From an uncultured Nitrososphaeraceae archaeon (GTDB lineage: Archaea > Thermoproteota > Nitrososphaeria > Nitrososphaerales > Nitrososphaeraceae), in assembly GCA_963729045.1 (NCBI GenBank), contig CAVSMN010000014.1, positions 32,001 through 96,000 of the forward strand: 64,000 nt of DNA, in the 5' to 3' direction. The notes under the pieces were generated by a model. The model was not told the DNA's origin and did no database searches. It worked only from the letters and a program-made list of their open reading frames with translations. This document shows, piece by piece, positions 3,470-27,332 of the stretch (position 1 is the first letter of the stretch; every line of letters begins with the position of its first letter). The position numbers were made by a program, and so were the translations under genes.

Positions 3470-4943
3470 TTGAATGATGCTACTATGACCGGGAGAATTA
3501 CTGCTGAATCTGTCGATCGAGACTTTATGCAAATAAGGTATACTGATCTTATAGGCAAGTTTCTCGCAAAATATATTCAAATCGATAAAGAGTTAATTCA
3601 GGATGTTTTTAGAAAGGGGATAGGGTTGGATGGTTCTTCAGTAATTGGTTTTTCAACTATAGATGAGTCTGATATGATGCTGTTTCCTGATAGAAAAACA
3701 TTAAGAAAAATACCTTTGTCAAGCTATGAAATAATGACTGTTATTGCTGATGTTTACAATGGATTTGATCAAGGTAGATCTCGAAAAGATCCACGGAGCG
3801 TTTCGCAAACTCTTGAGGATCACCTTGCCGTGAGTCAGATTGCGTGTCAAGTAGGTGCTGAGGTTGAATGCTTTGTATTTGATCAAATAATCTTTGATAT
3901 GGAAAAGAATGACCCCGCAAGTAATAATGTAAATGGTCGGAATCGTGCAAAAGATGTTTCAATCCTATCTTCAGAACAATATGGAATTGGGAAATATCCT
4001 ATTCGTAAAAAATCTGGGTATGATGTTCCTACTTTTCAAGACTCTCTGATTGAATTTCGGTTTGAGGTAGCTAATATATTGAAACAATATTATGATATCA
4101 ATGTCACAAATATGAATCACGAAGTGGCTAGTAGTGGCCAAATTGAAATCAATTTTATGCATGATTACTTGACTCAATCCGCCGACAACGTTCAGATTTA
4201 TAAAGATGTAGTCAGAAATGTGGCAAAAAAATACAACAAGATTGCAAATTTCATGCCAAAACCAATTTTTGATCCTCTGAACAATGAAAATAGTGATAAT
4301 GGATCAGGTATGCACGTAAGCATAAGCTTATGGACAAAATCAGCAAATAAGAATGCCAATTTATTTTATGATGAGTCTGATGATTACGCCGAATTGAGCC
4401 AAACTGGGCGATACTTCATAGGCGGTATTTTAGATCATGCTAGATCATTATCTGCAATAGTAACTCCAACCGTAAATTCGTATAAAAGGATTATACCAGG
4501 ATTTGAGGCACCCGTCTATATTGCTTGGGCTAGGGGAAATAGATCTGCTGTAGTTAGACTCCCAGTCAACGAAAAAAAGAGTTCGAACTCAAAAAGAATT
4601 GAGTGACCGGGCACCCGATCCTTCCGCAAATCCCTATCTTGCTTTCTCTGCCATAGTTGCAGCAGGATTGGACGGAATAAATAGAAAAATTGAACCAGGG
4701 AACCCTGTTAGTGAGGACATTTACAAAATGTCTGACTCAAGGAGGAAGGATCTTGGAATAGGTGTTCTACCTGGTAGTTTGGAGGAAGCGTTATCTTCGT
4801 TGAAAAGTGATTCAAATTATCTAAACCTTTGTTTTCACCATGATTTAATCAGTACGTATTCGGATCTTAAAAATAAGGAAATAGTGGAAATAGGTAACGA
4901 TGAATCAGTCATAAATCAATTCATGTTTTACTATGATGTCTAA
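3470..4943 (+). CDS. glnA: Glutamine synthetase type I (frameshift at ~4605)
   Basis: DGSS, HEVASSGQIE, FMPKP, NGSGMH and WARGNRSA motifs. Removing G4605 restores RIEYRAPDPSANPY. Confidence 0.93.
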
Positions 4944-5003
4944 GAATATTATTTCTTTCGTATCTTATATTTCTTTTATCTTATTCTTTTATATCCAATG
5001 CGC

Positions 5004-5222
5004 TCATCTTTTCTGTTCTTTTCTCAATAGGACTAAATCCTCAATATTATTGGGGTTCATATATACTTCTCCCCGTGTAGCCTCTTTGATACCGACAATA
5101 GGTTCATCACATTCTGGACATATTTGAAAATAAACAAAAATACTGGCACTTCTCTTATTTTTTCCAACAAGCGTATTACGCATGTTAGAATGAAATTGGC
5201 TCTGACATGTGGGACATTCCAT
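5004..5222 (-). CDS. Small zinc-ribbon protein
   Basis: CPTC...CPEC in a 72-aa ORF. Confidence 0.7.
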   Translation of the reverse strand: MECPTCQSQFHSNMRNTLVGKNKRSASIFVYFQICPECDEPIVGIKEATRGEVYMNPNNIEDLVLLRKEQKR

Positions 5223-5683
5223 ATTAATATTTTAATTTGAATTGTATATGTACTTTAACATACCCGAGAAATAATTTAGTAGTTGATTGATTAGTGCTAT
5301 TATTAAAAATATGTTGTACTAGATTCTTGACTTTTTTCCCTAACACATCTAACCATCTGAACCTCGTCTTGGCGACCTATTATAGTATCAGAATTGTATG
5401 AAATATTACTGCATAAAATGGATTATGAGGAATATCCACATAATTGGTTGTTTGCTTTCATTCTGTACCTAAAAAACATGTTTATAACATGACTGGGCAA
5501 ATGATGGTGATCAAAGGTTTGACACTAAAAATACTAAACCTGACGAATACATTATACTTAATTTTAGAATATGTGATATGATTGATAAGATAATTTCACT
5601 GTGCGTCTCTCAAAACCGTTCTAGTTACCAAATTTTGTCTTACTTCCGAATCTCGGTTTGAAACTTTATGGTTTTTTGATCGA

Positions 5684-7016
5684 TTGTTTATCCGAACAGT
5701 AATAATACGTCAATCCATGGTTTACTTGTGTATGTCTTCATTCAAGCAAGTATTTTCTCTTCCTGTTACCTCCATAATACTTGCTAGGATCATATATGCA
5801 GTAAATTGGTTTAATATTTCTTCTATTTTTTATCTCATCTTAAATGAATTTAAACAGGATGTTTCGATGTTGGGATTGGTAACTTCTGGATTTCTAATAG
5901 GGATTGGCCTTTTTCAGATTCCAGCTGGAATACTGTCGGCAAGATACGATGCAAAATTTATGATATTTTTTGGAACAATGTTGTTGTCTATATCTTCTCT
6001 TCTTTCAGGGTTGAGTTCAGAGTTATATCAAATGGTAATTCTAAGATTCCTAGTAGGAGTTGGGATGGCGTTTTTCTTTGGTCCTAGCGTTATTCTCATT
6101 TCAAAATATTTGGGTAAAGGATCAGATGGGCTAGGTGTTGGAATTTTAAATTCCGCCCATTCATTGGGTGGAATTATTGGAATATTTGGCTGGATCATCA
6201 TTGCGGAGGCTATTGGTTGGAGGACAAGTCTAGTAATCAGTGGAATCTTGGGAATACTCAGTGGATTGTTCTTGCTATACGCTCTACAGATAAAAAATTA
6301 TGATAGCTCCAATAATCTATCTAATTATTCTTTTCAGGAAAAAGTTTCCATTTTTTTTAAATTCTTTGACCTGAACAAAGAAACCCGCGATCAAAAGTCT
6401 AAATTCACAATTAATTTTGATGCCCTCAAATCTATCATGTTGAATAAACATATGATTTATGTGGGATTATCATTGCTTGGATTTCAAATAGCTTGGAATT
6501 TAGTCTCTACTTTTATCATTCTATTTCTTAGAGTCGAACTTGATATTACCTCTTCAATTGCGGGTCTAATTGGGGGATTAACCTTGATAGTGAATGTTAT
6601 ATTTGCTCCTTTTATTGGTAGAATTTATGATAAATTAACTCGAAAAAATAATTTCAATAATGATATAATATTGTTGCTAATATGTGGAATAGTTATTTCA
6701 GTAAATATCATTTGTTTTTCATATGCTTAATATTTATTTCTTGATCCCTTCAATAATGATAATTGGAATTTTTGCATCAGGAGGATTTGTAATTCCATAT
6801 GCATTGGCAAGGAGATTAGCCTTGGAGAAACTCGGATTGCCTAAATATGAAATTCTTGCTGTTAGTTTTGTTAACGGATTATCTTTACTTGGAGCTTTTT
6901 GGGTTCCATTTGTATTCTCTATCATGGTAAAATCATTTGGTTATTCTTTGGCATGGTTGTTTGGTGGATTATTGGTTTTAGTTTTCATAATTCCAATCAT
7001 AAAACTCCGCAGCTAA
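5684..7016 (+). CDS. MFS transporter (frameshift at ~6722)
   Basis: About 12 TM segments across two overlapping ORFs; motif-A-like GILSARYD and LRFLVGVG. Confidence 0.85.
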
Positions 7017-9301: not shown

Positions 9302-11180
9302 TTATTTCAATTTTTTGAGTAATTCTGGTACAGGTAATGTATTTAGAATATCATTTCTTCCTGCCCACCCTCTTCTTGCTTGTCCTATACCAAATTCCAA
9401 AAATGCATAATGCAGGGGGTGATGAGCATCTGAATCAACAACTAATTTAACTTCATTCTGTATAGCTGTTCTTATGTATTCATCACGTAAATCTAACCTG
9501 TTATAGTGAGAATCAATTTCCAGAATTGTGTTAGTTTCGTTTGCAATTGTCATTAATTTCGGAATATCCACAGGATAGCCATCTCTTTTATTAATGATTC
9601 TGCCAGTTGGATGAAAGATAATATCTACACTCGGATTTTGGGCTGCTTTAATTAACCTATTTGTTTGTACCTCTATTGGTTGAGAAAAATTAGAATGAAT
9701 TGCAGCACCTACTATGTCTAATTTATCCAAAATGTTGTTTGGAATGTCTAATGAACCGTCGCTAAGGATGTTTACTTCTGCTGAAGAAAGTATTCTAAAG
9801 TCACTCAAATTCCTTTCGCTTTTTTTTCTCTTCTTTTCGTAGTTGCTTGTTTTCCTTTCTAACTGTTTTTCTTCATTATGTTTATTTAGATCCACAAAGA
9901 AAGTACCGCTTTTTATTGAATCATTAAATTCTTGAATCTTATGTGCTTGGTCTAGTAGCTGTTGTTCGTCTAATCCCCTAGCGATTCTTAGGCTTTTTGT
10001 GTGATCTGTGATGGCGATATAATCAAGATTAAAATTCGTCATTGCAAAATATGCCATCTCTTTTATTGACATTTTCCCGTCCGTATTGTTTGAATGTACT
10101 TGTAGATCTCCTTTTATATCACCATACTTTATCAATCCTTTCATTTTTTCCTGCCACTCCTTTGACCCTTTCTTTGCTATCTCGATTTCTCCACTGTTTT
10201 CTCTCAATTCTGGAGGGATCCATTCCAACCCTAATTCATTGTACAACTGTTCTTCTGATTCGCCTGATATTTTTTGATCGGATTTAATATCAAATAATCC
10301 CCATTCATTTAAGCGAAGTGCCTTGGATTGTGCTAATCTTCGCAATGCTATTCCGTGTTCCTTACTTCCGGTAAAATATTGTAATGCTGCTCCATAACTT
10401 TCTTTAGGAACGACCAATAAATCGGAATCTAATCCATTATTAAATTTAATAAATGCTTTAGTACCACCTTTGCTTAGAATTTCTTTAACTTCGGGCATAT
10501 TTACGAATGAATTAATTACTTTATCTGGATTGTCTGAAACTACTAGAAAATCGATATCACCTATGGTTTCCTTCATTCTTCTAAAGGATCCTACTGCTGT
10601 TACAGTAGAAACGTTTTCCAAATTTGTTAAATATTTTTCTATTTGCTTTACCAATGGATAAATATCTCCAAGTAGATGCCTTTTTTTGCCTATGTTGTGT
10701 AATTCAATTCTCCTTAGTATTTTTTCTTCTTTTTTTTTAGAAATTCCTGAAATCCCGTTCAACTTCCCTTCTCTAGCAGCCCTTTCTAAATCACTGAGAT
10801 TTCTTATGGGTAACTTGTCAATTATTACTCTCAAAGTTTTCGGACCTATTCCTTCTAAGCCTACGAAATCATCTATCTTTATGGGGTATTTCGATTTTAG
10901 TATTTCATAATATTCAATCTTGCCTGTTTCAATATATTCTTCTATTTTTGAGGAGATTGCTTTACCAATAGAAGGAATTTGTATTAATCCATTAATCCCT
11001 CTTTCCTCATAAAGAGATGTAATACTTAGCGGAAGGTTATCAATTTGATCAGCTGCTCTAATATATGCTCTATTTTTGAAATTTAAATTAGTCTTGTTAT
11101 CATCATTATCATTATCCAACTCCAGTAGAAATGAAATCTTACGAAGGATATCAGAAATCTCTAGCGTTTGTAAGTTTCAC
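9302..11180 (-). CDS. polX: DNA polymerase X with PHP domain (frameshift near N-terminus, ~11165)
   Basis: HhH repeats, GSFRR..ETIGDIDFL, YFTGSKEH, and PHP motifs HS..TDG, TDH, DSDAH. Upstream GTG at 11180 joins via NLEISDILRKISFLLE after a 1-nt shift. Confidence 0.92.
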
Positions 11181-11485
11181 ACTATAACTCATTCTCGGGT
11201 ATTCATTAATTTTCTCATTGATTTGTTTTGGTGATTGGGTTGATGTTTGAAAGGGGGTGAAACAGTGGACACCAGTAATCAATATTTTTCATTTATTTAT
11301 ATGGCAGTCTTGAATTTTTATATCATATAATTTGATCAAAAAATTATATCATTAAACGATAATATTTATAATATTTATAGATGATACTAAAAGATATGTA
11401 GATCATGTACCAATAAGGTAAGAAATATTGAAAGTTTATTACAAAATATATATATTTAGCTGGACTTATTACAAAAGAATTAGCG

Positions 11486-11644
11486 ATGTTAGTCGAATCC
11501 TTAACCATTGGGATAATCATAGGGGTATGTGGACTTGTGACTTGGTTAGTAAAGAATAAGTTTCAACCAGAAATTGAACGTGATATACAAGAACGTGAGC
11601 AAAAGACTTTGAAATATGCTCGAGAAATACGAAAAAACCCGTAG
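11486..11644 (+). CDS. Small single-pass membrane protein (52 aa, below ORF-track cutoff)
   Basis: MLVESLTIGIIIGVCGLVTWLVKNKFQPEIERDIQERE...; TATATATTTA lies about 30 nt upstream. Confidence 0.55.
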   Translation: MLVESLTIGIIIGVCGLVTWLVKNKFQPEIERDIQEREQKTLKYAREIRKNP

Positions 11645-11692
11645 AAATATTACTACTTTATTACACTAGACATATTCTGGGATTATTGAATA

Positions 11693-12220
11693 TCAATCCA
11701 TGGTTAAAATTTTTTTGGCCTGATTTAGTTTTTCAAATAATTCTTTGATGAACAAATCGGCAAACTTGTCAAAATCAATTGTTCCAAATTGCTTCTTATA
11801 TTCTTCTTTGCGTTTATTATATTCGTCTTCAAGCCATAGAAAATCTGCTTCTTTCAATCTTACAATGAATCTATTAGTTTTAGCTTTGGATTCAAATACA
11901 TTTATCATAAAAATTCCTGCAAATTGTGTAAAATTTTTTAATTTATATTTTCTCATATATTCCTCTTTATGAATTTCATAGTTTTCTTTTAACCATGTTT
12001 TTACATCCATCCTAATTGTCAACGAGGTGTACACTCCGGAAAAGTCTAATTTCAGATTATGCATTTCAACAGAATAATGACCACGTTTGATTTCATTCAT
12101 CATAATTATTAGGGCACTTGGAAGAAACATTCCTGGGTAATATTCATCTGTAGAGTTCTGTAGTTTGTTTAGTATAGATGGTTTTAGCCCGATAGTTGCA
12201 TATCCCTTCGTAGGCATCAT
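11693..12220 (-). CDS. Putative DNA-binding protein with three tandem RHH-like units
   Basis: Internal repeat: YTSLTIRMDVKTWLKENYEIHKEEY..F..FA..F...FE vs FIVRLKEADFLWLEDEYNKRKEEY..F..FA..F...FE. A third, more divergent unit begins KGYATIGLKPSILNKL. Confidence 0.6.
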   Translation of the reverse strand: MMPTKGYATIGLKPSILNKLQNSTDEYYPGMFLPSALIIMMNEIKRGHYSVEMHNLKLDFSGVYTSLTIRMDVKTWLKENYEIHKEEYMRKYKLKNFTQFAGIFMINVFESKAKTNRFIVRLKEADFLWLEDEYNKRKEEYKKQFGTIDFDKFADLFIKELFEKLNQAKKILTMD

Positions 12221-12289
12221 TTTTATTCACTTTAGTATGCTTATTAACTTATTTTGGATGAGGCTAAAAAATAAAATGGTGAATTATTT

Positions 12290-13811
12290 TTAGTGAGATG
12301 GGGGTACATAATTCTTCAGGTCTTCACCATTGACAACATCTTCCTCAGGTGGTACATAGTCCACAACTCCATGTCGCTTGAATCCTGGATCCTTCTTCTG
12401 AGTAAGCAATGCTACGATTATGAAAAGAACAAACGATACTATGGGTGGTATAAAAGTATCTAATCCTGCATACTCTGGTGGGGTAGTATAATACAATACC
12501 AATCTTAGGGTGGACCCTACCACAATTGATGCGATTGCAGCCGGCCAGTTTGCCTTCTTCCAAAACAGACCTAATGTAAGTGGAGCCCATAACCCTGCAA
12601 ATACTATATCAAATGCAAGTATTAAATAAATTCCTGGACGAGGGATTGCTGCTCCGAGGAGAAGACCTGATAGCATTACTGGTATCGTTACACATCGAGT
12701 TAATATAAGCAACTTTTTATCCTCTATTCCGGCTTTTTTGAATAATGATCTAAGGATGTCTCTTTGAATCAAGTTTCTCGCTATAACACTTGAGATCGCA
12801 AGAAGACCACCGTTAGCAGTTGACATAGACGCGCCTAAAACTCCCATTAGTAAAGCAGCTCCTATTGGAAACGGAAGTAGGTTGATAGCAAGTAGAGGAT
12901 ACACTGTGTACGGATCTTCTATGTCTGGTAACATGTATAACGCAATTATTCCCATCATACTCGTAGGTACAATAATTGAAATTGTTAAAATTCCAGCCAT
13001 GAATGCACCTCTTCGAGCTGTCTTGCCATCTCTTGCTGAAAATACTCTTTCCATAAAATCAAGTGCTACTACATCACCAAGACCCAATGCTATAATTCCT
13101 GCCCAGTTTACCAAAGCCCCGTTTTTAGGATCGGTTAGACCGGACAAATCCAAATAGCTCTCTGGCGTGGCAGACAAGAATAGTTCCTAAATCCACTCCT
13201 CCAAATCCAAAGGCAAAATACAGAAATGCTGCCCAGAATGCTCCGATAGTTAAGTAAACCTGGAAAATATCTGTATACGCAGAAGAAAATAACCCTCCCG
13301 CAAACGTATATACCAATACCGCCAATGAAACAATTAGCATACCCCAGAAAAGTGGAATGTGCAAGACAGTTGACAGTATAAATCCCCCTGCTGCAAAATT
13401 CCCTGCAACTAATATTATGAAACTTAAAGACAAAAGTATGGATGACATTCCCTCTGCGCCAACACCATATCTTCTATAATAAAAATCTGGAAGGGTGAGC
13501 ATGGACATTTTGTTTACCCTTTTCGCATAGAAAATTCCTGTTATTATTAAACAAGATGCCAATCCAATTGGTATCGCAGCTCCAGCCCAAAAACCAAATT
13601 GATAAACAAGTGCCACGTTACCTAAGGAAGAGTTACCATCGATTGATTGAGCTGAAAGCATTGTTCCTACAAATATTAACGGTAGGCTCTTTCCTGCAAC
13701 CATGTATCTTTTGCTACTTTTTTTTACCATCATGGAAGTTAATACTCCCACAGACAGGACCAGCCCCATGAACGAGAGAACTGCTATACCATAAGCATCT
13801 ATGAAAACCAA
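12290..13811 (-). CDS. Sodium:solute symporter (SSS/SLC5) family transporter (frameshift at ~13178)
   Basis: YMVAGKSL, TLPDFYYRRYG, YTFAGGLFSSAYTDIFQ and ASMSTANGGLLAISS motifs; about 13 TM segments. Confidence 0.9.
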
Positions 13812-14026
13812 TGTTATTGGTATTTAGTTAGTAAATATATAAATATTATTAATTTAATGAATACTATTTTTTTTGATTCCTTTTTCATAAATAATTTCGG
13901 AAACTTTGCTTCAAAAAATGAAATTTCCCGATCTGTATATCTGACGCTATGTTATTTGACTGGTTATTCCTTATGTATGGTGGTTATACCACTAAGATCA
14001 ATACATAATATGTTATGGCAAGAAAA

Positions 14027-14111
14027 GACGTAAACTACGTCAAATGTAATAATTGTGAATATTAAGCATAATATATTCGGTTGTCGAACTTTTTTTTAAA
14101 CGTAGTTTACT
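14027..14111. promoter_or_regulatory. Pair of palindromic operator-like boxes upstream of the ureohydrolase
   Basis: GACGTA-AAC-TACGTC at 14027-14041, and ACGTAGTTTAC at 14100-14110 (exact reverse complement of 14030-14040), just upstream of a TTTATTAA TATA-like box. Confidence 0.55.
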
Positions 14112-14157
14112 TAACAATATTTATTAATTATTCATAGACATAATAATTAGATATTAT

Positions 14158-15276
14158 ATGGGAATGGAATTTTACGGAGATTCTTACAAGGGAAATGACG
14201 AACCTATTTTTGTTGGCATACCTACTTTTCTAAAACTACCTTATGTCAAAAAAAATGAAGAATTGCAAAAGATAAAGCCTGACATCGCAATAGTAGGAGA
14301 GCCTTTCGATTTTGGAACTACGATAAGACCTGGTTCTCGTTACGGCCCAAGAGCAATTAGAGCTGCATCTACTGTTCCTTCTCCACCTTATGAACATTTC
14401 AACATTGAAACTGGGGTCGACCCGTTTGGAGTCTTTAAAGCTGTTGACTACGGTGATGTCAATATCTCTCCTGGGGATGTCATTGAGTCTCATAGACGGA
14501 TGACTAATAAAGTTAAAGAAGTTCTCGATATAGATGCAATCCCAATAATTTTGGGCGGAGATCATTCAGTGACCTTTGCAAACGTTCGTGCACTTTCTAA
14601 AAAATATAAGAACATAGGAATGATCCATATTGATTGTCATGCTGATTGCGCACCACAAGGACTTTGTGGATTCAAATATGATCATGGAGCTCACATTAGA
14701 CGAATCATGGAATTGGGATGTCTTAAGGGAAAAAATTATACGCTTATAGGTCCTAGAGGTTATTGGCCAGGACCAGATCTGTACAAATGGATGGCCGACC
14801 AGGATTTTCAGTGGTTTACGATGCTTGATGTGGAGGAATTAGGTATTGATCAGATTGCCAAAGAGGCTGCGGATAGGGCAAACGACGATGTTGATGCTGT
14901 TTATGTTAGTTGGGATATCGACACTTTTGATCCTGCGTACGCACCAGGAACCGGTGAACCAGAGCCCAATGGTCTAACTTCAAGGGAAGGGATGAAGCTA
15001 ATGAGATTATTATCAACTTCATTTGATCCAGATAGATTTGCATTCGATCTTGTTGAGGTTTCCCCAACATATGATGTAAGTGACGTTAATTCTTATAACG
15101 GAGGTATTACATCTGGGCTCGCAAATCGTTTGATAGTTGAATTAATGGCAGGGTTATCCTTGACCAAAAAGGGCGAATCTGAAGGAAAGCCTGTACGACC
15201 CAAATTTTATCGTGGTAAGGGAAATACATACGATTTTGGAAACGGTCCTAAAGCAAAGATACCAAAAAGAAAGTAA
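14158..15276 (+). CDS. Ureohydrolase (agmatinase/arginase superfamily), substrate uncertain
   Basis: RPGSRYGPRAIR, GGDHS, DCHAD, SWDIDTFDP, APGTGEPEPNG and EVSP motifs. Confidence 0.93.
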   Translation: MGMEFYGDSYKGNDEPIFVGIPTFLKLPYVKKNEELQKIKPDIAIVGEPFDFGTTIRPGSRYGPRAIRAASTVPSPPYEHFNIETGVDPFGVFKAVDYGDVNISPGDVIESHRRMTNKVKEVLDIDAIPIILGGDHSVTFANVRALSKKYKNIGMIHIDCHADCAPQGLCGFKYDHGAHIRRIMELGCLKGKNYTLIGPRGYWPGPDLYKWMADQDFQWFTMLDVEELGIDQIAKEAADRANDDVDAVYVSWDIDTFDPAYAPGTGEPEPNGLTSREGMKLMRLLSTSFDPDRFAFDLVEVSPTYDVSDVNSYNGGITSGLANRLIVELMAGLSLTKKGESEGKPVRPKFYRGKGNTYDFGNGPKAKIPKRK

Positions 15277-15658
15277 TGCATCTAATCAGAGTACATTGCT
15301 TTTCTTCACATCAAACTATCCATCACAATATTTTTTTGAGAGATGAAATCGATGAAACTATATTTTTTAATACATTCAAGATTATTGAAACAAAAATCAA
15401 AAGGCAATTAAGAATCAATTTAAATGAATCGATGTGGTTTTATTGCGGATGTGTCTTAAATCAATTACACTTGGGTACTGCATATAGATGAAATCAGGAC
15501 AAATTTATCTAAGATACTAAGTGAAGAAATGGTTATGATAGGAGTAGTGGAGTTAATGAAAAAAATTGAAATTGAAATAAAAATTGTTACAGGATCACAT
15601 TATTTCCCATAATATAAGATTAAGATTAGTAAAGCCAATACGGATGAGTAAAAATTAA
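15276..15658 (+). CDS. Stand-alone urease gamma-subunit-like protein (frameshifts at ~15480 and ~15607)
   Basis: RQLRINLNESMWF, then after a shift DEIRTNLSKILSEEMVMIGVVELMKKIEIE, then LVKPI. This parallels UreA RGLKLNYPEA..TVLTREDVMEGVPEMI..HNPI. Start overlaps the upstream stop (TAATG). Confidence 0.6.
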
Positions 15659-15799
15659 ACAGCAAATGCATCAAATCGTGTTTTATTTTTTGAAAATTGA
15701 TAACCAGTGCTGAAAAAAATTGTTGATATTTACTGTTGATATTTGAGTTTAAAACTTGAATTTGTTCCACCATTTTGTATCTATCTGATCAATAGAAAA

Positions 15800-17506
15800 T
15801 TAATAATAATGGTGATGGGGTCTTTGTTGTTTGCCCAACCTATCAAAGTAATGATCATGTTTTTTGTCTCCACCAGCATGCGAATGCTCTGTCCCATCCT
15901 CATGGGTATGAGTGTTCATTAGTGGTTTTTTGATAATAATGTCGTCTATATTTATCAAAAGACGGCTTACTTCTACGGCTGTATTGAGCACTTGCTCCTT
16001 TACAATTGTAGGTTCGATCACATCCCAATCCAGTTGAGATATTTTTCTTTCGTCTGAATTTAGTCCAAACCATTTAACCTTTTTACTATCAAAATTCTGA
16101 GATAGATTTAGTCTAAGTTGAATAAAAGCATCCATCAAATTCAACCCTGAATTTTTTGCAAGAATTAATGGAATTTCTTCTAATGCTTCGGAGAATTTAA
16201 GTAAAACTATTTGCTCCGTTCCTTCAATCATGTTTGCTCTTTTTCTTACTTGTTGTGCCATTAATGCTTCACAAGACCCACCTCCAATGACAATGGATGG
16301 ATGTTGGACGAATCTACTTATACTGGTAATAGTACTTTGAATTGCACGATGATATTCATCTAGCATCATTTTTGAATTTGCTCTGATTAAAATTGAAACT
16401 GTTTTAGGATTTATACATCCTTCTACAAATATCATCTTATCGCTCCCTATTTTCTTCTCATATACATTTTTGGCATATCCTACATTACTTTGTATGTTTC
16501 TAACATCTAAATCCTTTATCAGTTTTCCGCCTGTAGCTTTCTCTAGCCAATGAAGATCATTCTCTTTTACTCTTTTGACTGACATTATTCCAAACTTGGC
16601 CAAAAGATCCTGTGCCACCAAGTCTATTCCTTTACGGTTTATTACTACATTTACACCACTATCGATTATTTTTTGTATTTTGTTTCTCGTGATGTGGTTT
16701 TCTTCAATCCTAAATAGATACATCTGTTCTGGACTGCTGATTGATAATTGAGATTCTGTTTTTGTCGACCTTGCCTGAAGGTCTTCGTCTAGTAAAAGGA
16801 TTCGTGCATTTTTGACAAATTTAGGCATGAGATCACTATCTATTGTTTTATCAATCAGTACTCCATCAATCAGAATACTCTCTGATAAATTACCAATTTT
16901 TTCCTCAATTTTTATGTCATCCGCCTCTAAAAGGTAGTTATTATTAGAATATACAGTATTAATCGCATTAACGGTAATTTCTAAAATATTATTTAATTCG
17001 GATTGTGGGTCAGAGGAAAGCCTGACTTTTGTTCCTAAACACGTCCGTGCGAGTTTCTCAATGATTGTCCTATCCTTGCTACTTACTTTTCTTGAGATAT
17101 TGTGCAAGGTCTCTAGGGAATATTTGAGCCCTTTATCATATCCGTTAACAATAGTAGCTGGATATATGTTCATCGCCAACATCTCTTGTGCCTTTTCCAA
17201 AAGAGTAGCCGCAATTATGGCAGTTGTTAGTGTTCCATCCCCTACTTCGTTATCCACTGTATTAGTGGCATCGATTATCACTTTAGCTGCGGGATGTTGA
17301 ACATCAATCTTACGGAGGAATGTGGCACCATCTTTTGTGCATGTCGATTCACCAATTATGTCAATATAGATCTTTTCATTTCCTAAAGGACCATAGCAGC
17401 TCTCAATTAGAGATTTTATCAGCCGAGCGGCATGAATGTTATAACTCCTTACTTCTTTGCCACTTGTTCGCTGTGTATCATCAGGGATTAGTTTAGCATA
17501 GGACAT
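15800..17506 (-). CDS. Divergent group II chaperonin (thermosome-like) with His-rich C-terminal tail
   Basis: YGPLG, KDGATFL, EVGDGTLT, LEKATGG, TVSILIRA and GGGSCE motifs; ends NTHTHEDGTEHSHAGGDKKHDHYFDRLGKQQRPHHHYY. Confidence 0.9.
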   Translation of the reverse strand: MSYAKLIPDDTQRTSGKEVRSYNIHAARLIKSLIESCYGPLGNEKIYIDIIGESTCTKDGATFLRKIDVQHPAAKVIIDATNTVDNEVGDGTLTTAIIAATLLEKAQEMLAMNIYPATIVNGYDKGLKYSLETLHNISRKVSSKDRTIIEKLARTCLGTKVRLSSDPQSELNNILEITVNAINTVYSNNNYLLEADDIKIEEKIGNLSESILIDGVLIDKTIDSDLMPKFVKNARILLLDEDLQARSTKTESQLSISSPEQMYLFRIEENHITRNKIQKIIDSGVNVVINRKGIDLVAQDLLAKFGIMSVKRVKENDLHWLEKATGGKLIKDLDVRNIQSNVGYAKNVYEKKIGSDKMIFVEGCINPKTVSILIRANSKMMLDEYHRAIQSTITSISRFVQHPSIVIGGGSCEALMAQQVRKRANMIEGTEQIVLLKFSEALEEIPLILAKNSGLNLMDAFIQLRLNLSQNFDSKKVKWFGLNSDERKISQLDWDVIEPTIVKEQVLNTAVEVSRLLINIDDIIIKKPLMNTHTHEDGTEHSHAGGDKKHDHYFDRLGKQQRPHHHYY

Positions 17507-17680
17507 ATCTTGTTATAATTCTTGGAGTTTATATATGGTAACATCAAAAATGTATTTTACAAAAATTTGTAATTCGTTCTGAAAATATAAAAGTAGATTA
17601 CGTATTCGTTTTTTGGAACAAATGTGTAAATTCCTCTTTTTTGCAATACTTTTTTATAGTTATTAATTATTAATTCCTTA

Positions 17681-17974
17681 ATGCCAACTGTAACATCTAA
17701 AGTTGAAATTGAAAATGCTTCAAAGAATGCAATAAACGCCCTCTTTGGACCAAATGTTGAAAATTTTAGAATACGTGAAGTATTTCCATATTCTGAGGAT
17801 CAAATTGTAGCCCATAGCGAACAAATGGACGAGACGTCTCAACCAAAAGATGGATGGGATATTCAGGTTACATTCTTGTTAAACGGTCTTCAATATACAG
17901 TGGATCTCATCATTCATGAAAAAGATGGACAGGTAAGTTATTCTAGGGTCATTGACAAAATGGTTCCTCTCTGA
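17681..17974 (+). CDS. Hypothetical protein
   Basis: 97-aa ORF directly upstream of the USP gene. Confidence 0.65.
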   Translation: MPTVTSKVEIENASKNAINALFGPNVENFRIREVFPYSEDQIVAHSEQMDETSQPKDGWDIQVTFLLNGLQYTVDLIIHEKDGQVSYSRVIDKMVPL

Positions 17975-17981
17975 TTTTTAG

Positions 17982-18441
17982 ATGCTATTTAAGAATATTT
18001 TACTAGCTTTCGATGGCTCAACATGCTTCGTCAAAAGCAGCAGAATATGCAATTTACTTGTGTAAATTAGAAGGGGCACCTCTTACATTCTTACACATCC
18101 TTGATAATATTAAGCAAGGCGGGGTCATAGGTCTAAGAGCACGATATGGTGATACTAATTTGATTGATGGATACAAAAGGGCAAGAAGGCAGGACGCAGA
18201 AAAATGGATAAAACCAATTCAAGAGAGAGCCACAACAGAGGGTATCAAGAGTACCATTGCTATTTTAGATGATGAAAAAAATTCTAAAGTAGAAACAATC
18301 GTTCAATTTATAGAAAAAAATAATATTGATCTAGTTATTATGGGTTCGAGAGGATTATCTAAATTTAAACAAATGTTAGTTGGAAGTATTGCATCAGGGA
18401 TAATTAGTCATTCCAAATGCCCTGTGTTGGTAATCCGATAA
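17982..18441 (+). CDS. uspA: Universal stress protein (frameshift at ~18020)
   Basis: MLFKNILLAFDGS in the upstream frame; DLVIMGSRG..GS..CPVLVIR at the C-terminus. Confidence 0.9.
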
Positions 18442-18445
18442 CCAT

Positions 18446-19198
18446 CTACTTTTTTTTTAGATAGTTTAGGATTATTTCTTTTACAAAATCATTTACCTCA
18501 TGACCATTCTCTTTTGCCTTTTGCTCTAAAGAATTCCACAGGATTCTATCCTTTTCTTTGGAAGGATTAAAAACTAATCTTACTGTAAGTAGTCCTTTGG
18601 GAGCGCCTCTTTTTATCCCTAATCGGATGAGTTCTTCTTTCAATGCAGCAGGCTCGATATCTGCCAACTTTATCTGAACTTCAGATGGCTGTCTTGCTAT
18701 TTTTATGCCTTCATAAAGCGTAATTTCACCATTTTCTATTTTTTCCTGAATCTGATTTGGAAGGGTAAGAATGCTTAGCCATTCACTAATTGTGCTTTTC
18801 GGTAACCCGTATAAACGAGATACTCCTGTAATTCCAGACTTCGTCGATTCTACCAATTTTTTTACCATTCTTGCCTTTTCTAAAGGGGAGAGATCTTTTC
18901 TTATTAAATTTTCAAACAGAGAGGCTGCCTCTGCTTCTGCACCCTTTAATTTTGTAATAACTGCTGGAATTTCTTTCTCTCCTTTATTGTGGAGGGCTAA
19001 AAATCTTCTCCTTCCGATAAGTAACTTATATCTTTTAGTAAAATTATCAAATCGGACCACAACCGGTTGAAGTAATTCAAATTTTGCCAAATGTTCTTTC
19101 ATTAAGTTATCACTTGAATCTTTTCCAAATGAAAAATTCTTACGGACATTTTCATCTGCTACATCGATTAAATCAACCGGAATATTCTTGATTTTCAA
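18446..19198 (-). CDS. ParB/Srx-domain protein with central HTH and C-terminal RHH-like domain
   Basis: LLQPVVVR, YKLLIGRRRFLA and ENLIRKDLSPLEKA motifs; HTH GLPKSTISEWL; tail TVRLVF..LEQKAKENGHEVNDFVKEIILNYL. Confidence 0.85.
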   Translation of the reverse strand: MKIKNIPVDLIDVADENVRKNFSFGKDSSDNLMKEHLAKFELLQPVVVRFDNFTKRYKLLIGRRRFLALHNKGEKEIPAVITKLKGAEAEAASLFENLIRKDLSPLEKARMVKKLVESTKSGITGVSRLYGLPKSTISEWLSILTLPNQIQEKIENGEITLYEGIKIARQPSEVQIKLADIEPAALKEELIRLGIKRGAPKGLLTVRLVFNPSKEKDRILWNSLEQKAKENGHEVNDFVKEIILNYLKKK

Positions 19199-19359
19199 TC
19201 CTTATTACTTATTCATCTTTTATATTATTATTCATTTTGGTTTGAAGCCATTAGTTTGCCACTTTCTTTATTAATCGTATTATACGCATCAATCTTACGC
19301 CTATATTCGTAATTTACGGGATTCTAAACAATCCTTATATTAATTAAATTTGATAGTAA

Positions 19360-19629
19360 GTGATGCAAAGTTATCTCAAATCAAATGAAAAACTTGATCA
19401 TTATGATGAATTGAGTAAAGCGACTTTTTTATCTTACTTTATTTCTTTATATATTTCTACTATTGAACATAAGAATAGGAATGATAGTGTTTCAGTTAGT
19501 GAAATTTATGATTTTATACAAGATTTACAAGACGAATTGGATTTTAAAGTTCCTCATGTTGACAAAAGAGATATCAGTTTGTGCTTTTATATTTTAGACA
19601 AGTTGGGTGTATGTAGTTGTTTAAAATAA
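19360..19629 (+). CDS. Hypothetical protein, possibly winged-helix-like
   Basis: 89-aa ORF divergent from the ParB-like gene. Confidence 0.5.
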   Translation: MMQSYLKSNEKLDHYDELSKATFLSYFISLYISTIEHKNRNDSVSVSEIYDFIQDLQDELDFKVPHVDKRDISLCFYILDKLGVCSCLK

Positions 19630-19661
19630 ACACAAACTATTTTAAGAATAAATACAAAAAT

Positions 19662-20131
19662 TTGGTAACGAAAGTTCGATTACAGATGAAACCATCAATC
19701 TTGAAGAACTGGTAAAGTGTGGTGAAAAAGAGGCCAGTCGGAATAATTTTGAAAAGGCTCTAGATATTTTTGATAAGGCAATAAGGATAAATCCCGCATT
19801 TGACTCTGCTTACGGTGATAAGGCCCTAGTATTTGACAAGATGGGAAAATTGGATGAATCTTTAAAAATGTATTCTAAGGCATTGGAAATTAATCCAAAA
19901 AATTCGATAACGTGGCATAATAAGGGTTTAACCCTAATCAAAAAGAAAAGAATGGATGAAGCCATTAATTGTTTTGATAAAGCTATTTCTATTGATAAAA
20001 ATTATTCCAAGGCTTGGTATAACAAAGGAAGATGCCTTGAGATGCAGGGTAATTTGGAAAATGCACAGATTTGTCTAACTAAGGCTAGAAAATTAGATCC
20101 ATTCCTGTTTTCTAAAATTAAACTAAGATAA
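19662..20131 (+). CDS. TPR-repeat protein
   Basis: Repeated TPR units (WHNKG..A..CFDKAI, WYNKG). The frame is open upstream of 19841 with a further TPR (KALDIFDKAIRINP); the exact start is unclear. Confidence 0.85.
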
Positions 20132-20319
20132 AAGAGCAAATAATACCCCTTTTTAGTTCCTGTTTTGCTTTATTAAATTTCGACCAAATATTCTATTCAA
20201 TTTGTTACAGACTGTAAGTGCGACAAAAGATGATAAAAGCTGTATCTCTTAAAACATTATTATTAATGTATGTAAAAATAATTAGTAAAGTTTAATTTAG
20301 AGATTCTGTATTTATTTTC

Positions 20320-20679
20320 ATGAAAGAAATCAATGTTTATATTCGACCGAACGATCTTTCAAAAGTGACTGATATTTTACAAAAGCATAAGTTGGGTATT
20401 ACCTTTTTTGATATCCAGGGAACTGGTAGAACTCCACGATCTACCTCCGAAATTATTCATTCTTATCAAACCGGTAGAACCACAATACCTAAATTTATAG
20501 GCCGTGTCCTTGTGATTTCAATAGTTTCGGATTCGATTGTTAACCAAATCATTGAGGAGATGATGCGTAGTTTTGATATGCAAGAAGAACCATACGGCGT
20601 ACTCTTTGTAAAAGATGTGACTAATGCCTATGAATTAGGGACTGAGTTGAAAGGGGATGAAGTTCTAGTTTCAAAATGA
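20320..20679 (+). CDS. P-II family nitrogen regulatory protein (GlnB/GlnK-like)
   Basis: MKEINVYIRP, GITFFDIQGTGR and YGVLFVKDVTNAYELGT match the P-II pattern; the T-loop is divergent. Confidence 0.85.
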   Translation: MKEINVYIRPNDLSKVTDILQKHKLGITFFDIQGTGRTPRSTSEIIHSYQTGRTTIPKFIGRVLVISIVSDSIVNQIIEEMMRSFDMQEEPYGVLFVKDVTNAYELGTELKGDEVLVSK

Positions 20680-20960
20680 TCTAATTCTAATAAATGAACA
20701 ATCTTTTGAAAAAGGCTTTGCGTTTTCAAAATTATCTCGACGTCTTTTTCGGGTATCTTAATGTCTACTAACGGTTTTCTTTCATATCTTGGCTGCTCTA
20801 AGACATTAAGTCCGGTTTAATCAAATTACTATTTACAGTATTAGTTGAAGATAAGTAAATTAGGATCATGATAACAGCCATAGTCATTTTAATCTTTGTC
20901 ATGAGATCTAGTTTAACAAGATCTTAACCAATAATAGTCGGTCCTGATTATTGACAAGAA

Positions 20961-21240
20961 TTGACCAAAGAACTATCAGAAGAAGAAGCTTGGAATATTA
21001 TCAAACCTATCTGTAGAGAACTTGATGAATTGAGAAATGAAGGCCACTTGATAGTTTTTGTCTGGACTTCAAAATGAAAATGATGGAACCTATAAAATAA
21101 ACCTGCGGAGTAATCATTTGCATTTTGCGTCGCGAGGATTAAAGGATAGTATAGGTGATATATCATATGAGACTGGTAGAATCAGAATTGGTATGCGAGC
21201 TAATGGGATTCCGATAAACATATTCGTTGAACTATTTTGA
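20961..21240 (+). CDS. Hypothetical protein (frameshift in T-run at ~21055)
   Basis: LTKELSEEEAWNIIKPICRELDELRNEGHLIV joins LSGLQNENDGTYKINL when one T is removed. Confidence 0.55.
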
Positions 21241-21420
21241 TATGGGGGTTTTGTATTAGGTAAAATGGTCGGAATAATGAACCTAGTCATTAATTCTTGA
21301 TTTATGTAGAACATGTAGTACAGGATTTCTTTTACTAAAAATGGGGAATTTTGCCCTCAATTACGATTTTTCTTGCTAGATAGCCAGCTGCACTATGTGA
21401 GAGTGTGACAATTGGAGAAT

Positions 21421-22978
21421 TTATAGTTCATGCTCTTTTAGAGTAATTTGATTCGTTCTTCTTTTCAATAGTATCATACAGGGGAAGGATATCAAAGAAA
21501 TTATTGTTGCGGTGATAAAGATGAGATCATATGATAACTGAGAAGGAAATGATTGTCCCCCCATACTGATTACTGACTCTTGAAAAGCTTGCATATAAGT
21601 TGAGGCAATTACTGGACCTATGGAACTGCCCATTAATACTAATACTACTGATATCCCTATCGAGACTCCGCTATACTGATGGGGTGTATGTTGCAATGTG
21701 ATATTGAAAGCTCCTACTTGTGTCAATGACAATCCTGCGGAGATTATTATCAAATTTAGTGAAATTAAAAATTCACTTCCATGAAATGCGAATAAACTAG
21801 CAAAACCAATTGTAGTCAAAACACTTCCTACAACAATTGGCTTGAAATTGCCTATTTTTGATACTATAAATCCTGAGGATGGAGCAAATATTAAGAAAAC
21901 TATCATGAACGGCAATTGAACCATTGCACTATCCATTGCTTCCCCACCAAATCCAAACGGTATTGGGCTAGTTACCAAAATTGGTATAGTTTGATAAATC
22001 ATAAACATTGTTATTCCAAAAACTAAGAGGATAATATTTGATGGAAGCAAAATCCTGTCTGATATTAATCTGAGTGGTATTAACGGATCCTTTGCCTTTC
22101 TTTCAACGAGTACAAATGCTGTCATTGAGCAAATTGTCAGTGTAACAAGTGAACCTAGGACAATGCCATCAAACGACGTAAAATTATTGGATTCACTATT
22201 TGTGTTAGCAAAATATGTTAAAGTTAATAGGAAAGATGAAATTGATAAAGCTAACGATATTGCTCCTTTAATATCTATATGATGTCTGGTTTTTTTATCA
22301 CTAAGGTTACTTTGATCTAATCGTCCATTTTCCTTTTTGGGTTGGATTGAAATTTGAATTTTGTTCACCCTCGTTGTTGATATTTGATGTGTCATCATCC
22401 TTTATTCGCTTCTTTATTATGATCCAAAGTATGATTGCCACTGGTATTATGGTGAAAAAGGTAGCTTGCCATCCAAAATTTTGGACTATTGTCCCACCTA
22501 TAGCCATTCCAACTACTGATCCTGCAGCAAACATCGAACTGAAAACTCCTATACCAATTGCAATCTTAGACATAGGAAATTGGTCTCTTATGATTCCAAA
22601 TGCGATGGGGAACATTGAAATACCTATACCTTGAATGATTCTTGCCAAAACTAAAGTGTAAATATTAGTTGACAATCCTCCGATGGCGATCCCTATAATA
22701 TAAATAATAAAAATCACAAGCACCATTTTCTTTCTACCATATATGTCTGATAATTTTCCTGCTATAGGCGTCATGACTGCTCCTGAAATTAAGTAGGCCG
22801 TCAGAATCCATGACGAGGTACTATATGAAATATCAAAGTCTCTAATTATATCACTAATAGCTGGTAAAAGCATGGTTTCTCCGTACATCGTTATCAAAAT
22901 TGTCGATCCCAATATTGCCAGTGTTATCCACGTGGATTCGTGAATCTTTTCGCTGGCATTTGGTTTTATGTTTTTCAT
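21421..22978 (-). CDS. MFS drug/H+ antiporter-like transporter, 14-TM type (frameshift at ~22335)
   Basis: GKLSDIYGRKK (motif A), ARIIQGIG and DPLIPL motifs. Confidence 0.88.
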
Positions 22979-23023: not shown

Positions 23024-24069
23024 TCATACGGCTGGAATTTTAACTTCCTTCTTTAATTTACTTCTATATTCTCTATAGTCCTCATCAATCTCCATGGCTG
23101 CTTGAAGTATTTTGCTTCTTATTGTGTTAGATGAATTGATAAACATCCTTGTATCTTTGGGAAGACAGTGACCTCCTATTCCATCCCTAGGTTCTAGAAC
23201 TTCTACATTCCATTTTGTATTGAGTGATTCACGTAATTCAGAAAAACTGATACTGTTAGACTTGCAATAGAGGTAAAGCTCTTCTGCAAATGCTATTTGA
23301 AGATATCTATGAGCATTTTCTACTATTTTTGTTAGTTCTGCTACTTCAACTGACGATACTGGATGCATTGGAATTGATAGAGTTTTTATCCCAGCTGATG
23401 ATGAAGCTTTGTTGTTTCTGTTGTCTGGGGTACTACTTCCCGTCCATCATAAAAGTTAAGACCGTGTTGCAAGCAGCAGTTGCTCACACCTCCTACAATA
23501 CGTAATTGATTAACACCGTGAACTTCTTCTTCTAATGCATACCATCTATGTGGTGCATGTACAACGTGTAGTCTATGGTCTACTTTTTCAAATACTTTTT
23601 TAGATGTACCTTTTGGTATAGTGCTTTCAATTGATATTAGTGCGCCTGTTTTAGCTTCTCTAGATATCTTTTCAACAACAGACATCAAACCATCTACTTG
23701 TGGTGTAAACATATCATCTGGTCTATGTGTAGATACACAGATAATTAGTACGTCAAAATCACCAAAGTTGGATGCTTGCTTTATTCCATAGTTGGCTTCA
23801 GCTGATTGCATGGTTTTTTGATTTATATCATATCCATAAGTATCAAAACCATGTTCTTTAACATATTTTGCAACTGGAAGACCAAGTTGGCCAAGTCCTA
23901 TGATAACTACTTTTTCATTTTTAAGGATGTTGGGCCTTTGGGCATTTAACTTGTTAGATGTAATTGGATTAGTAGTGCTAAGGACACTATCTGAATAACT
24001 AAACTGTTCCTGTGTCTCCAAACGCATGCCGTCTAAAGACTGGTCATTTTCCTTCCTTAATGGAATCAT
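23024..24069 (-). CDS. NDP-sugar dehydrogenase family protein (UDP-ManNAc/UDP-glucose DH-like; frameshift at ~23408)
   Basis: IIGLGQLGLP Rossmann motif, ESTIPKGT, AELTKIVENAHRY and GIGGHCLPKD. Confidence 0.88.
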
Positions 24070-27272: not shown

Positions 27273-27290
27273 TAGGATTGACAATGATTA

Positions 27291-27332
27291 GGTGATGCAG
27301 GTGCGAATGGAAAAATTTCATACCTGCAACCC
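27291..27332 (+). terminator. Hairpin downstream of the repeat protein
   Basis: TGCAGGT...ACCTGCA inverted repeat followed by T-rich sequence. Confidence 0.4.

Follow-up and report, generated by a model that had tools for sequence, protein, structure and literature searches.

The 64,000-nucleotide stretch analysed here (the window; contig CAVSMN010000014.1 of an uncultured Nitrososphaeraceae archaeon) carries, at 11.7-17.5 kb, a sodium:solute symporter (SSS) gene divergent from the gene of a 372-aa ureohydrolase (UH), which overlaps the gene of a urease-gamma-like protein, and this in turn converges on the gene of a thermosome with a His-rich C-terminal tail. With moderate confidence we regard these genes as inherited together and as forming a catabolic module that acts on an organic nitrogen compound in terrestrial ammonia-oxidizing archaea (AOA) and, in reduced form, in haloarchaea. 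The identities of the genes, the intact metal ligands of the UH, the gamma fold predicted for its neighbor and the linkage are the firm parts of this model. In the mechanism proposed, the SSS would take up the substrate, a guanidino-type compound, and the UH, a binuclear-metal enzyme, would cleave it and free urea, as expected from the chemistry of the family. The cell's urease would convert the urea to ammonia for energy and nitrogen, as suggested by the co-occurrence of the two enzymes. The protein with the urease gamma fold, made together with the UH through overlapping stop and start codons, would most likely be a structural or docking partner, and the dedicated thermosome, with its His-rich tail facing the cavity, would fold the UH and/or hold its metal, most likely nickel. 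That urea from the UH feeds urease is probable, while the nickel role and the metal-handling role of the tail are plausible without reaching that level. The features of the region are as follows.

11693-12220, minus strand: orf175, a 175-aa conserved protein of unassigned function, usually beside the SSS gene
12290-13811, minus strand: SSS gene, PF00474 matched on both pieces (frames 12290-13177 and 13125-13811), about 508 aa when intact, divergent from the UH gene
13812-14157, no strand: divergent intergenic (promoter) region of 346 bp between the SSS and UH genes
14158-15276, plus strand: UH, 372-aa ureohydrolase, PF00491 at 265.8 bits (cut-off 22)
15276-15658, plus strand: urease-gamma-like gene of about 126 codons, its start overlapping the UH stop
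15800-17506, minus strand: His-tailed thermosome (group II chaperonin), tail encoded at 15803-15922, convergent with the gamma-like gene
17681-17974, plus strand: orf97, a small conserved protein with no Pfam match

An earlier note on this DNA had described four genes, namely a symporter, a ureohydrolase, a UreA-like gene and a His-tailed chaperonin, and all were recovered by profile and open reading frame (ORF) analysis. Position 11693, given there as the start of the region, belongs to the separate conserved ORF orf175 and not to the SSS gene. The UH stop and the gamma-like start share one base (TAATG). The "UreA-like ORF" of that note, 71 codons long, is the N-terminal part of the gene of about 126 codons, which is broken by extra bases.

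The linkage of the genes was assessed by a scan with one genome per species, which gave 302 loci with a UH relative; the best 80 of these (at least 88% identical) were used for neighbor counts. They came from records of Nitrosocosmicus, Nitrososphaera, other Nitrososphaeraceae, Nitrosotalea and Nitrosopumilaceae. Genes within 10 kb of the UH were counted, both in all 80 loci and in the 33 of them having at least 6 kb on both sides. The gamma-like gene was a neighbor in 75 of the 80 loci (31 of the 33 well-flanked ones), the SSS gene in 64 (33 of 33), the thermosome gene in 60 (30), orf97 in 58 (30), orf175 in 33 (19), ureC in 22 (15) and a NicO-like permease gene in 13 (6). The arrangement occurs far more than by chance over the 80 loci and the 401 genomes considered below. 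A lack of linkage in other genomes had been named in advance as a refuting outcome; it was decisively not observed, the genes being linked across three AOA families.

The phyletic pattern was read from 401 genomes drawn evenly over the order, among them the window genome (G000) and G275, an unpublished genome in which UH, tail and ureC all occur. UH was found in 106 of the 401 genomes and in 68 of the 111 other genomes of the window's family. The His tail was found in 100 genomes, 99 of them among the 106 with UH and one among the 295 without; this single exception is a metagenome-assembled genome (MAG) that is 85% complete. Seven genomes had UH and no tail. Four of these are all the UH-bearing members of family f4, in which the UH frame is 429-447 aa long and, in genome G027, ends in a His-rich tail of its own; the other three are fragmented MAGs. 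ureC was present in 154 of the 401 genomes, in 97 of the 106 with UH versus 57 of the 295 without. This co-occurrence, together with the proximity of UH to urease operons, seen in many AOA as well as Natronorubrum, gives comparative support to the earlier proposal of urea as an ammonia source.

The same split was seen within one genus. Among 25 Nitrosocosmicus genomes, 12 have UH, tail and SSS together and 13 have none of the three; 12 of these 13 still have ureC. orf175 and orf97 show the same presence and absence as UH in this genus. In two genomes lacking UH (G020 and G012) an empty site was found, where glnA-MFS-Nre-PolX directly adjoin MFS-UDP-glucose dehydrogenase-TetR, and where Usp, ParB_N/HTH, orf89, TPR and P-II are also absent. 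Since the flanks adjoin each other at the empty site, about 11.2-21.4 kb of the window, from orf175 through P-II, is a single indel unit of about 10 kb. The block (approximately 11200-21400) has 11 genes. The P-II and glnA genes reported earlier as lying nearby were both found, P-II inside the block and glnA outside it. The remaining features named here are listed below, the first four being parts of the block.

18013-18441, plus strand: universal stress protein (Usp), PF00582 at 84.2 bits
18446-19198, minus strand: ParB_N and HTH_ParB protein, possibly regulatory or partition-like; 33 of the 80 loci have it near UH
19360-20131, plus strand: orf89 and a TPR protein
20320-20679, plus strand: P-II-like nitrogen regulatory protein, PF00543 at 38.8 bits (cut-off 25), the last gene of the block, near UH in 19 of the 80 loci
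3470-4943: glnA, split into two ORFs

No tRNA was found at the borders of the island. The island carries a ParB_N/HTH gene, and the haloarchaeal counterparts of the island are on megaplasmids. A recent wholesale transfer of the island was considered as the cause of the high UH identity and rejected, as the neighbors are far more diverged than UH in the same loci: over the 80 loci UH is 88-99% identical and SSS 50-77% (mostly 54-66%), while full-length thermosome matches are 62-97% identical in Nitrosocosmicus and 44-54% in other genera.

The UH carries the residues expected of an active enzyme of its family. H136, D159, H161, D163, D253 and D255 are invariant in 59 UH sequences; from what is known of arginases we take H136 and the D-x-H-x-D and D-x-D motifs to be the six ligands of a binuclear metal site. 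Also invariant is E267, in the motif PGTGEPEPNG, and the mean column identity is 84%. The protein has a conserved C-terminal extension of about 40 aa. UH orthologues in the 106 genomes, which span three AOA families, are 75-99% identical. Within Nitrosocosmicus UH is 96-99% identical, as against 75-98% for SSS, 62-97% for the thermosome and 65-94% for PolX, the neighbors being summarized at 55-90%; being far more conserved than its neighbors within the genus, UH is apparently under unusually strong constraint. Among 1.84 billion representatives searched, a single close cluster was found outside, that of haloarchaeal "agmatinase family proteins" at 54% identity. All other near-full-length representatives were at most 47% identical, the rows of higher identity being short fragments.

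Relatedness to characterised ureohydrolases was judged by bit scores against structures in the PDB. The best match was the guanidinobutyrase GbuA (181.9 bits, over UH residues 11-313), followed by the Synechocystis guanidine hydrolase GdmH (170.7), the Nitrospira inopinata guanidinase (9FEK; 168.2), proclavaminate amidinohydrolase (PAH; 165.4) and the guanidinopropionase GpuA (157.8). Metformin hydrolase subunit A gave 123-129 bits and SpeB agmatinases 112-117 bits. By this measure UH appears closer to guanidinobutyrase and guanidine hydrolase than to SpeB, and it nests within no characterised enzyme, being about equally distant from several (158-182 bits). A Glu and a 7-residue insertion after the sequence YDVSD are common to the AOA and haloarchaeal UH alone. 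Ten other sequences were included in the alignment: nine extend into this region, all of them with Thr and lacking the insertion, and the tenth (P0124) stops before it. As judged from these alignments, UH would be a distinct, Glu-type subfamily of ureohydrolases. The Glu is predicted to lie next to the metal site, where it could form a pair with a guanidinium group that is free, so that guanidine and methylguanidine stay candidate substrates alongside guanidino acids and agmatine.

A simpler explanation would be polyamine and urea housekeeping. UH would then be a manganese-dependent SpeB-type agmatinase making putrescine, its urea being recycled by urease, with the SSS as a urea transporter, the thermosome as a general stress chaperonin and the gamma-like protein as a spare urease subunit, linked only by sharing an island. 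We consider this improbable. The agmatinase models are the best NCBIfam matches of UH, and databases name its homologues agmatinase, but its scores lie below both cut-offs (157.4 versus 174.3 bits for TIGR01230 and 200.5 versus 302 for NF002564), and GbuA, GdmH, PAH and GpuA all score well above SpeB. Moreover, the window genome has a separate paralogue of 287 aa whose best PDB match is E. coli SpeB, so the housekeeping role of an agmatinase is plausibly already covered; this, with the scores, supports the view that the enzyme is not a plain SpeB and bears out its earlier description as atypical. Passages in a 2024 paper likewise give the names agmatinase and urea transporter to the enzyme and the SSS (ISME J 2024, PMC11131427), whereas urease loci have their own transporters, of the UT or SSS-Usp type, and the 12 urease-bearing Nitrosocosmicus genomes without UH have no SSS. 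Although the block is one indel unit in Nitrosocosmicus, linkage persists between families while the gene order varies, and the patchy occurrence of UH (106 of 401 genomes) is unlike that of a housekeeping gene. The Joint Genome Institute (JGI) and NCBI call the gamma-like protein "urease gamma subunit". In the thermosome, conservation is higher in the tail than in the body, and the tail follows the occurrence of UH rather than that of urease.

Returning to the catabolic module, the enzymes for guanidine are among the closest known systems. GdmH (Synechocystis Sll1077, 7ESR/7OI1) and the N. inopinata guanidinase belong to the same superfamily as UH, with the same six ligands and the Thr97 equivalent, and both need, or are suspected to need, an aid for nickel loading, as proposed for UH. 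GdmH uses HypA/HypB-type proteins. The accessory genes of UH are the gamma-like gene and the thermosome gene instead, the linked transporter is an SSS and not of the APC or ABC type, and a search of 11000-18500 against Rfam (E <= 1) revealed no riboswitch or other RNA, including no guanidine riboswitch. UH further differs from GdmH by its 7-residue insertion and its C-terminal extension. According to passages of Palatinszky 2024 (PMC11410670), Thr97 and Trp305 (Synechocystis numbering) specify guanidine in GdmH; in UH the Thr97 equivalent is kept (GTT) and the Trp305 equivalent is Glu. The same excerpts describe how urea produced by the N. inopinata guanidinase is passed to urease in a nitrifier, as is proposed for UH, and they leave open how nickel is delivered to that enzyme without HypA/B-type chaperones. 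GbuA (P. aeruginosa, 3NIO) and GpuA (3NIP) are urea-releasing hydrolases of guanidino acids; GbuA has Thr where UH has Glu, and neither has dedicated partner genes. In metformin hydrolase (MfmAB/MetCaCb; 8SNF, 8X3G), described in the literature as a nickel-dependent ureohydrolase requiring a second polypeptide, the partner is a second subunit of ureohydrolase fold, whereas the putative partner of UH has a predicted urease gamma fold.

The gamma-like fragment of the window matched Urease_gamma (PF00547) with only 13.7 bits (E 0.17). Six intact orthologues gave 47.7, 30.0, 26.3, 22.8, 21.1 and 18.3 bits, three of the six being above the cut-off of 23.9. The UreA equivalog cut-offs of NCBIfam were not reached (36 versus 123 bits and 34.5 versus 82.3 bits). 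An AlphaFold2 (AF2) model built from 57 sequences had a predicted local distance difference test (pLDDT) score of 92.4, and its 17 best PDB matches in Foldseek were all urease gamma chains or domains, with probability 1.0. Against stand-alone gamma chains the template modeling (TM) score, normalised by the target, was 0.78-0.84. The protein is thus predicted by modeling to have the urease gamma fold. It resembles UreA in this fold and, for three of the six orthologues, in PF00547 matches above the cut-off, but differs by an extra N-terminal beta-hairpin of about 25 residues and by the position of its gene, which follows UH and is not part of a ureABC operon; the true ureA of the window genome is on contig C9. 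The gene lies directly 3' of UH in 75 of the 80 loci, and in 48 of these 75 its start overlaps or abuts the UH stop. In total, 895 homologues were found. In a Nitrosocosmicus locus without the gamma-like gene (L046, genome G005), UH and the thermosome gene are separated by roughly 1 kb of additional DNA, at about 4870-5870, which carries a long transposase-like ORF.

The thermosome matched PF00118 with 427.8 bits and the NCBIfam thermosome alpha model with 474.8 bits (cut-off 450), while TIGR02339 was not reached (468 versus 671). Nine His residues are found in its last 39 residues. This tail, with 8-10 His among the final 40 residues, was present in all 59 UH-linked thermosomes having a readable C-terminus. 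In 36 distant orthologues the tail was 77% identical to that of the window protein, while the body was 48% identical. The window genome has three thermosome genes, and the His-tailed one is 39-40% identical to the other two; the paralogue on C15 carries a Gly/Met-rich tail of the housekeeping type, in place of which the window thermosome has the His-rich tail. The sequence GDGTT[ST] was found in 39 of 48 orthologues and GDGTL[TS] in seven, including that of the window (six of the seven being GDGTLT); the remaining two have GDGTIS and SDGTTS, and LDE and GGG are kept. GDGTT, LDE and GGG are presumably the nucleotide-binding and ATPase motifs. A fourth, Hsp60-like gene, located in the urease cluster on C9, is only 25% identical to the His-tailed thermosome. 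A precedent for such a tail is H. pylori GroES HspA, which has a His-rich C-terminal tail. Chaperonins tied to nickel enzymes are also represented by the Hsp60 of AOA urease loci, likewise linked genetically to a metal-dependent nitrogen hydrolase. The window thermosome is a different paralogue, however: it belongs to group II, has the tail on the cage subunit itself, and tracks UH and not urease. Passages of Abby 2018 (PMC5797428) describe an Hsp60 homologue inside AOA urease loci, and the Hsp60-like gene on C9 corresponds to it.

The urease of the window genome is encoded at C9:119256-128878, in a cluster of ureABC, the Hsp60-like gene and ureEFGD, with a gene for a UT-type transporter adjoining ureA. 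This UT gene was matched in three pieces, which again suggests frameshift errors. In G027 the genes SSS ... UH(His tail)-NicO-like-ureA-B-C-E-F-G-D are contiguous from UH onward, and no gamma-like gene was found there. G036 has thermosome-SSS-...-orf175-orf97-UH-gamma-like-NicO-like. In the single-contig genomes G170 and G182 a stretch of about 28 kb starts with ureDGFE-Hsp60-like-ureCBA and UT and SSS-Usp transporter genes, and continues with Usp-orf175-SSS-ParB-UH-gamma-like, the His-tail thermosome, a second ureABC and orf97. Loci L134-L137 of these two genomes thus hold two complete ureABC sets, the second copy being flanked by the His-tail thermosome and orf97 and having no accessory genes of its own. 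A second ureABC set is recorded for two named Nitrososphaera species in passages of Abby 2018 (PMC5797428), and also in excerpts of the N. evergladensis genome paper (PMC4084955).

Such loci raise the possibility that the thermosome and the gamma-like protein assemble or nickel-load urease, for example the second ureABC of Nitrososphaera, and that UH just feeds urea to it. The thermosome gene directly precedes ureABC copy 2 and orf97 in G170, G182 and several MAG loci, but in Nitrosocosmicus the single urease is on another contig with its own Hsp60-like gene, a gene that at the same time recalls, with the homologue in passages of Abby 2018 (PMC5797428), that AOA ureases can have a chaperonin beside them. 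Twelve of the 13 members of this genus lacking UH keep urease and yet have no His-tail thermosome. The gamma-like protein does have the predicted urease gamma fold, yet its gene overlaps the stop of UH and not that of a urease gene. In family f4 a His-rich tail is on UH itself (G027), and no tailed thermosome was found there. Altogether we hold this explanation to be decidedly unlikely.

For the module as proposed, nickel is suggested as the metal by NicO-like permeases and the His tails, which point to handling of a metal of the nickel/cobalt type. A NicO-like gene was found 3' of the gamma-like gene in 12 of the 80 loci and in G036, and directly 3' of UH in G027. One of two proteins tested was over the PF03824 cut-off (28.4 versus 27.7 bits), and no NCBIfam name was assigned. 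The motif H-x4-D-H, which we take to be the signature of nickel/cobalt transporters, and a His-rich loop were present in 15 aligned sequences. No HypA over cut-off was found in the window genome (2.85 Mb in 22 contigs, 87% complete), and UreG was its only clear G3E GTPase, giving comparative support to the non-HypA/B route suggested earlier. As a separate observation, the cytoplasmic His loop of the NicO-like proteins has a core, in some members H-x-H-E-D-G-T-x-H-T-H, that is similar to the T-H-T-H-E-D-G-T-E-H-S-H of the thermosome tail; the observation covers L043 7157-7909, L044 9562-10320 and 13 loci. This core may be a shared metal-binding or hand-over motif.

The haloarchaea appear to offer a view of the module in an independent lineage, in reduced form. 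Their UH is 53-54% identical to that of AOA. In Natronorubrum bangense the orthologue is on a plasmid, where it comes after a PhoU-like gene and lies next to a complete urease operon. On pNG700 of Haloarcula marismortui the orthologue and a PhoU-like gene are divergent from an SSS gene whose product is 37% identical to the AOA SSS, and Usp and a cpn60 with a His-containing tail, beside a formamidase, are found within 8 kb. In the latter pair (L138, 2899-5821), which lies about 6 kb away from the UH orthologue, the formamidase gene is followed by that of a TCP-1/cpn60 with the His-cluster tail D-G-E-H-D-H-A-H. This is a second instance in which a group II chaperonin with a His-bearing tail is encoded next to a nitrogen hydrolase.

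The SSS gene beside UH is the sole member of its family found in the window genome, and SSS was present in 14 of 14 genomes with UH and 0 of 27 without. The urease locus on C9 has its own UT urea transporter gene beside it, and in G170 (checked with Pfam) a UT gene and an SSS-Usp fusion lie beside ureABC1. The UH-linked SSS is 24% identical to this 773-aa fusion, found beside ureABC1 in G170 and G182. Since the urease loci have a separate UT or SSS-Usp, the UH-linked SSS is not the urease-locus transporter. Its absence from the 12 urease-bearing Nitrosocosmicus genomes without UH belongs to the same pattern, which favors a substrate other than urea.

The SSS gene and the gamma-like gene of the window are both interrupted, the former by one extra base near 13176 and the latter by extra bases at about 15482 and 15591. 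In alignments with relatives of 91-96% nucleotide identity, the base at 13176 is unique to the window against the three relatives spanning it, and those at 15482 and 15591 against all five; these are the sole unique in-gene insertions of the window in the region aligned with the five relatives. When the extra base is taken out, SSS becomes one 508-aa protein, as in the nearest relative G004, and SSS is in a single frame in relatives; with its extra bases removed, the gamma-like ORF extends to about 126 codons and ends at 15658. Metagenome contigs were also checked, taken from two DNA runs and two RNA runs (X1, X5, X15, X16) that belong to four studies. At 13175-13179 one base is missing from all covering contigs, whichever of the four runs they come from. 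At 15483 the base is absent from the covering contigs of X5, X15 and X16, and the X1 contig is without that gap; at 15590 it is absent from those of X5 and X15. Some of the contigs without extra bases are about 99% identical to the window, with only 2 mismatches in 158-415 bases.

The frameshifts could mean that the module is decaying in this genome, with SSS and the gamma-like gene truly broken and UH and the thermosome alone intact. All three insertions are confined to SSS and the gamma-like gene, UH and the thermosome being free of them, and a subclade of Nitrosocosmicus has lost the gamma-like gene. However, glnA (3470-4943), two MFS genes (5684-7016 and 21421-22978) and the UDP-glucose dehydrogenase gene (23024-24069) are each split into two ORFs as well, and at least three of these breaks are isolated single-base insertions relative to G004 (4605 in glnA, 6723 and 22346 in the MFS genes). 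Two genes in other parts of the genome, those of an arginase paralogue and a thermosome, are likewise split or truncated. Because glnA and other genes are split alike and relatives lack the extra bases, the three frameshifts are most likely errors of assembly, and pseudogene decay as their cause was largely rejected, the covering contigs being mostly without the extra bases; we regard decay of the module as very unlikely. The module is therefore probably functional in the organism, where we are quite confident that it is intact. In an assembly that seems so prone to insertion errors, split genes are not to be taken for pseudogenes without support from reads.

Several observations weigh against the catabolic module and its nickel-dependent mechanism. 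Nine of the 106 genomes with UH had no ureC found, all nine being multi-contig MAGs. Related genomes are not independent, therefore the phyletic counts describe the pattern and are no test of it; adjacent genes gained and lost as one block co-vary without a functional tie. The gamma-like gene is absent from five of the 80 loci (L057-L061), all Nitrosocosmicus, and in this genus the protein evolves fast, being 26-35% identical to the Nitrososphaera form; taken together, the loss and the fast evolution mean that at least one lineage can do without the gene. A NicO-like gene was looked for in the window genome (87% complete) and not found, and NicO-like genes were seen in just 13 of the 80 loci. 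His-rich tails can bind zinc, cobalt or copper besides nickel. In some Nitrososphaeraceae loci, those of G170 and G182 among them, the thermosome could serve the second ureABC instead of UH, as it sits between the UH pair and this set. UH is without the equivalent of Trp305, which defines guanidine specificity in GdmH. The substrate, the metal and the contacts between the proteins are all inferred. The function that the earlier note gave to the cluster stands in part: the genes are linked, the enzyme is atypical and urease co-occurs, but the guanidine-specifying Trp is missing and glnA lies outside the island. A more specific form of the model, rather unlikely in our view, is that UH of terrestrial AOA and some haloarchaea is an unrecognised nickel-dependent hydrolase of guanidine or a small guanidino compound with Glu replacing Trp, that the thermosome is a metallochaperonin whose cavity, lined by His-rich tails that have a motif in common with the loop of the NicO-like importer, loads the metal, and that the gamma-like subunit docks the enzyme to the chaperonin or to UreDFG. 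AOA would in that case gain an organic substrate for energy and nitrogen that genome screens declared absent.

Contigs of close relatives in two soil metatranscriptome runs cover SSS, UH, the gamma-like gene and the thermosome gene. The divergent spacer (13811-14011) is covered by both DNA runs and by neither RNA run, a weak hint at transcription of the flanking genes. This RNA evidence consists of relatives' contigs from metatranscriptomes, which can hold DNA, and it is likewise a point on the negative side. Passages of PMC11131427 (ISME J 2024) report the "agmatinase" clustered with SSS as conserved and expressed in soil MAGs. The adjacency of SSS and "agmatinase", the urease-locus Hsp60 and the extra ureABC are already known from PMC11131427, PMC5797428 and PMC4084955. 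Palatinszky 2024 (PMC11410670) reports having found no guanidine-degradation genes in any AOA, and a 2025 study (mSystems 2025, PMC12625717) reports the same for its floodplain nitrifier MAGs, AOA included. The full-text literature, supplements aside, contained in the portions covered no description of the His-tailed thermosome, the gamma-like partner of a ureohydrolase, the Glu-type subfamily or their co-inheritance.

AOA dominate nitrification in many soils, with ammonia, urea and cyanate as accepted substrates. If the proposed module is real, this list would widen, and the modeling of nitrification driven by organic nitrogen would change. The thermosome would be a first case of a group II chaperonin that has become dedicated to a single metalloenzyme by means of a tail that binds metal, and the gamma-like protein a first case of a urease subunit fold recruited by another enzyme family. 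The mechanism bears as well on how nickel reaches ureohydrolases in organisms without HypA/B-type chaperones. The Nitrosocosmicus species with and without the clean 10-kb island constitute a natural experiment.

The two small proteins accompanying the module gave few clues. orf175 has a mean column identity of 70% over 30 orthologues and was found in 13 of the 14 genomes with UH, and among the 27 without UH there was one fragment of 32 residues. No Pfam family was over cut-off for its 30 members, which gave sub-threshold noise alone. An AF2 model (pLDDT 65) showed two beta-alpha-alpha units and had no Foldseek match at E <= 0.001. Assignment to RHH_3 was dropped, as the Atlas score of 0.87 was below the 0.9 line; orf175 is possibly a DNA-binding regulator. 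orf97 was found in 13 of the 14 genomes with UH and 0 of the 27 without; an Atlas search returned only hypothetical clusters of Nitrososphaerota, and PepSY, with a score of merely 0.76, was rejected. Away from the module, positions 26000-28000 of the window have a G+C content of 0.40 versus about 0.33 elsewhere, stacked short ORFs on the minus strand and dense indels relative to G004, and may represent an RNA gene or a variable region.

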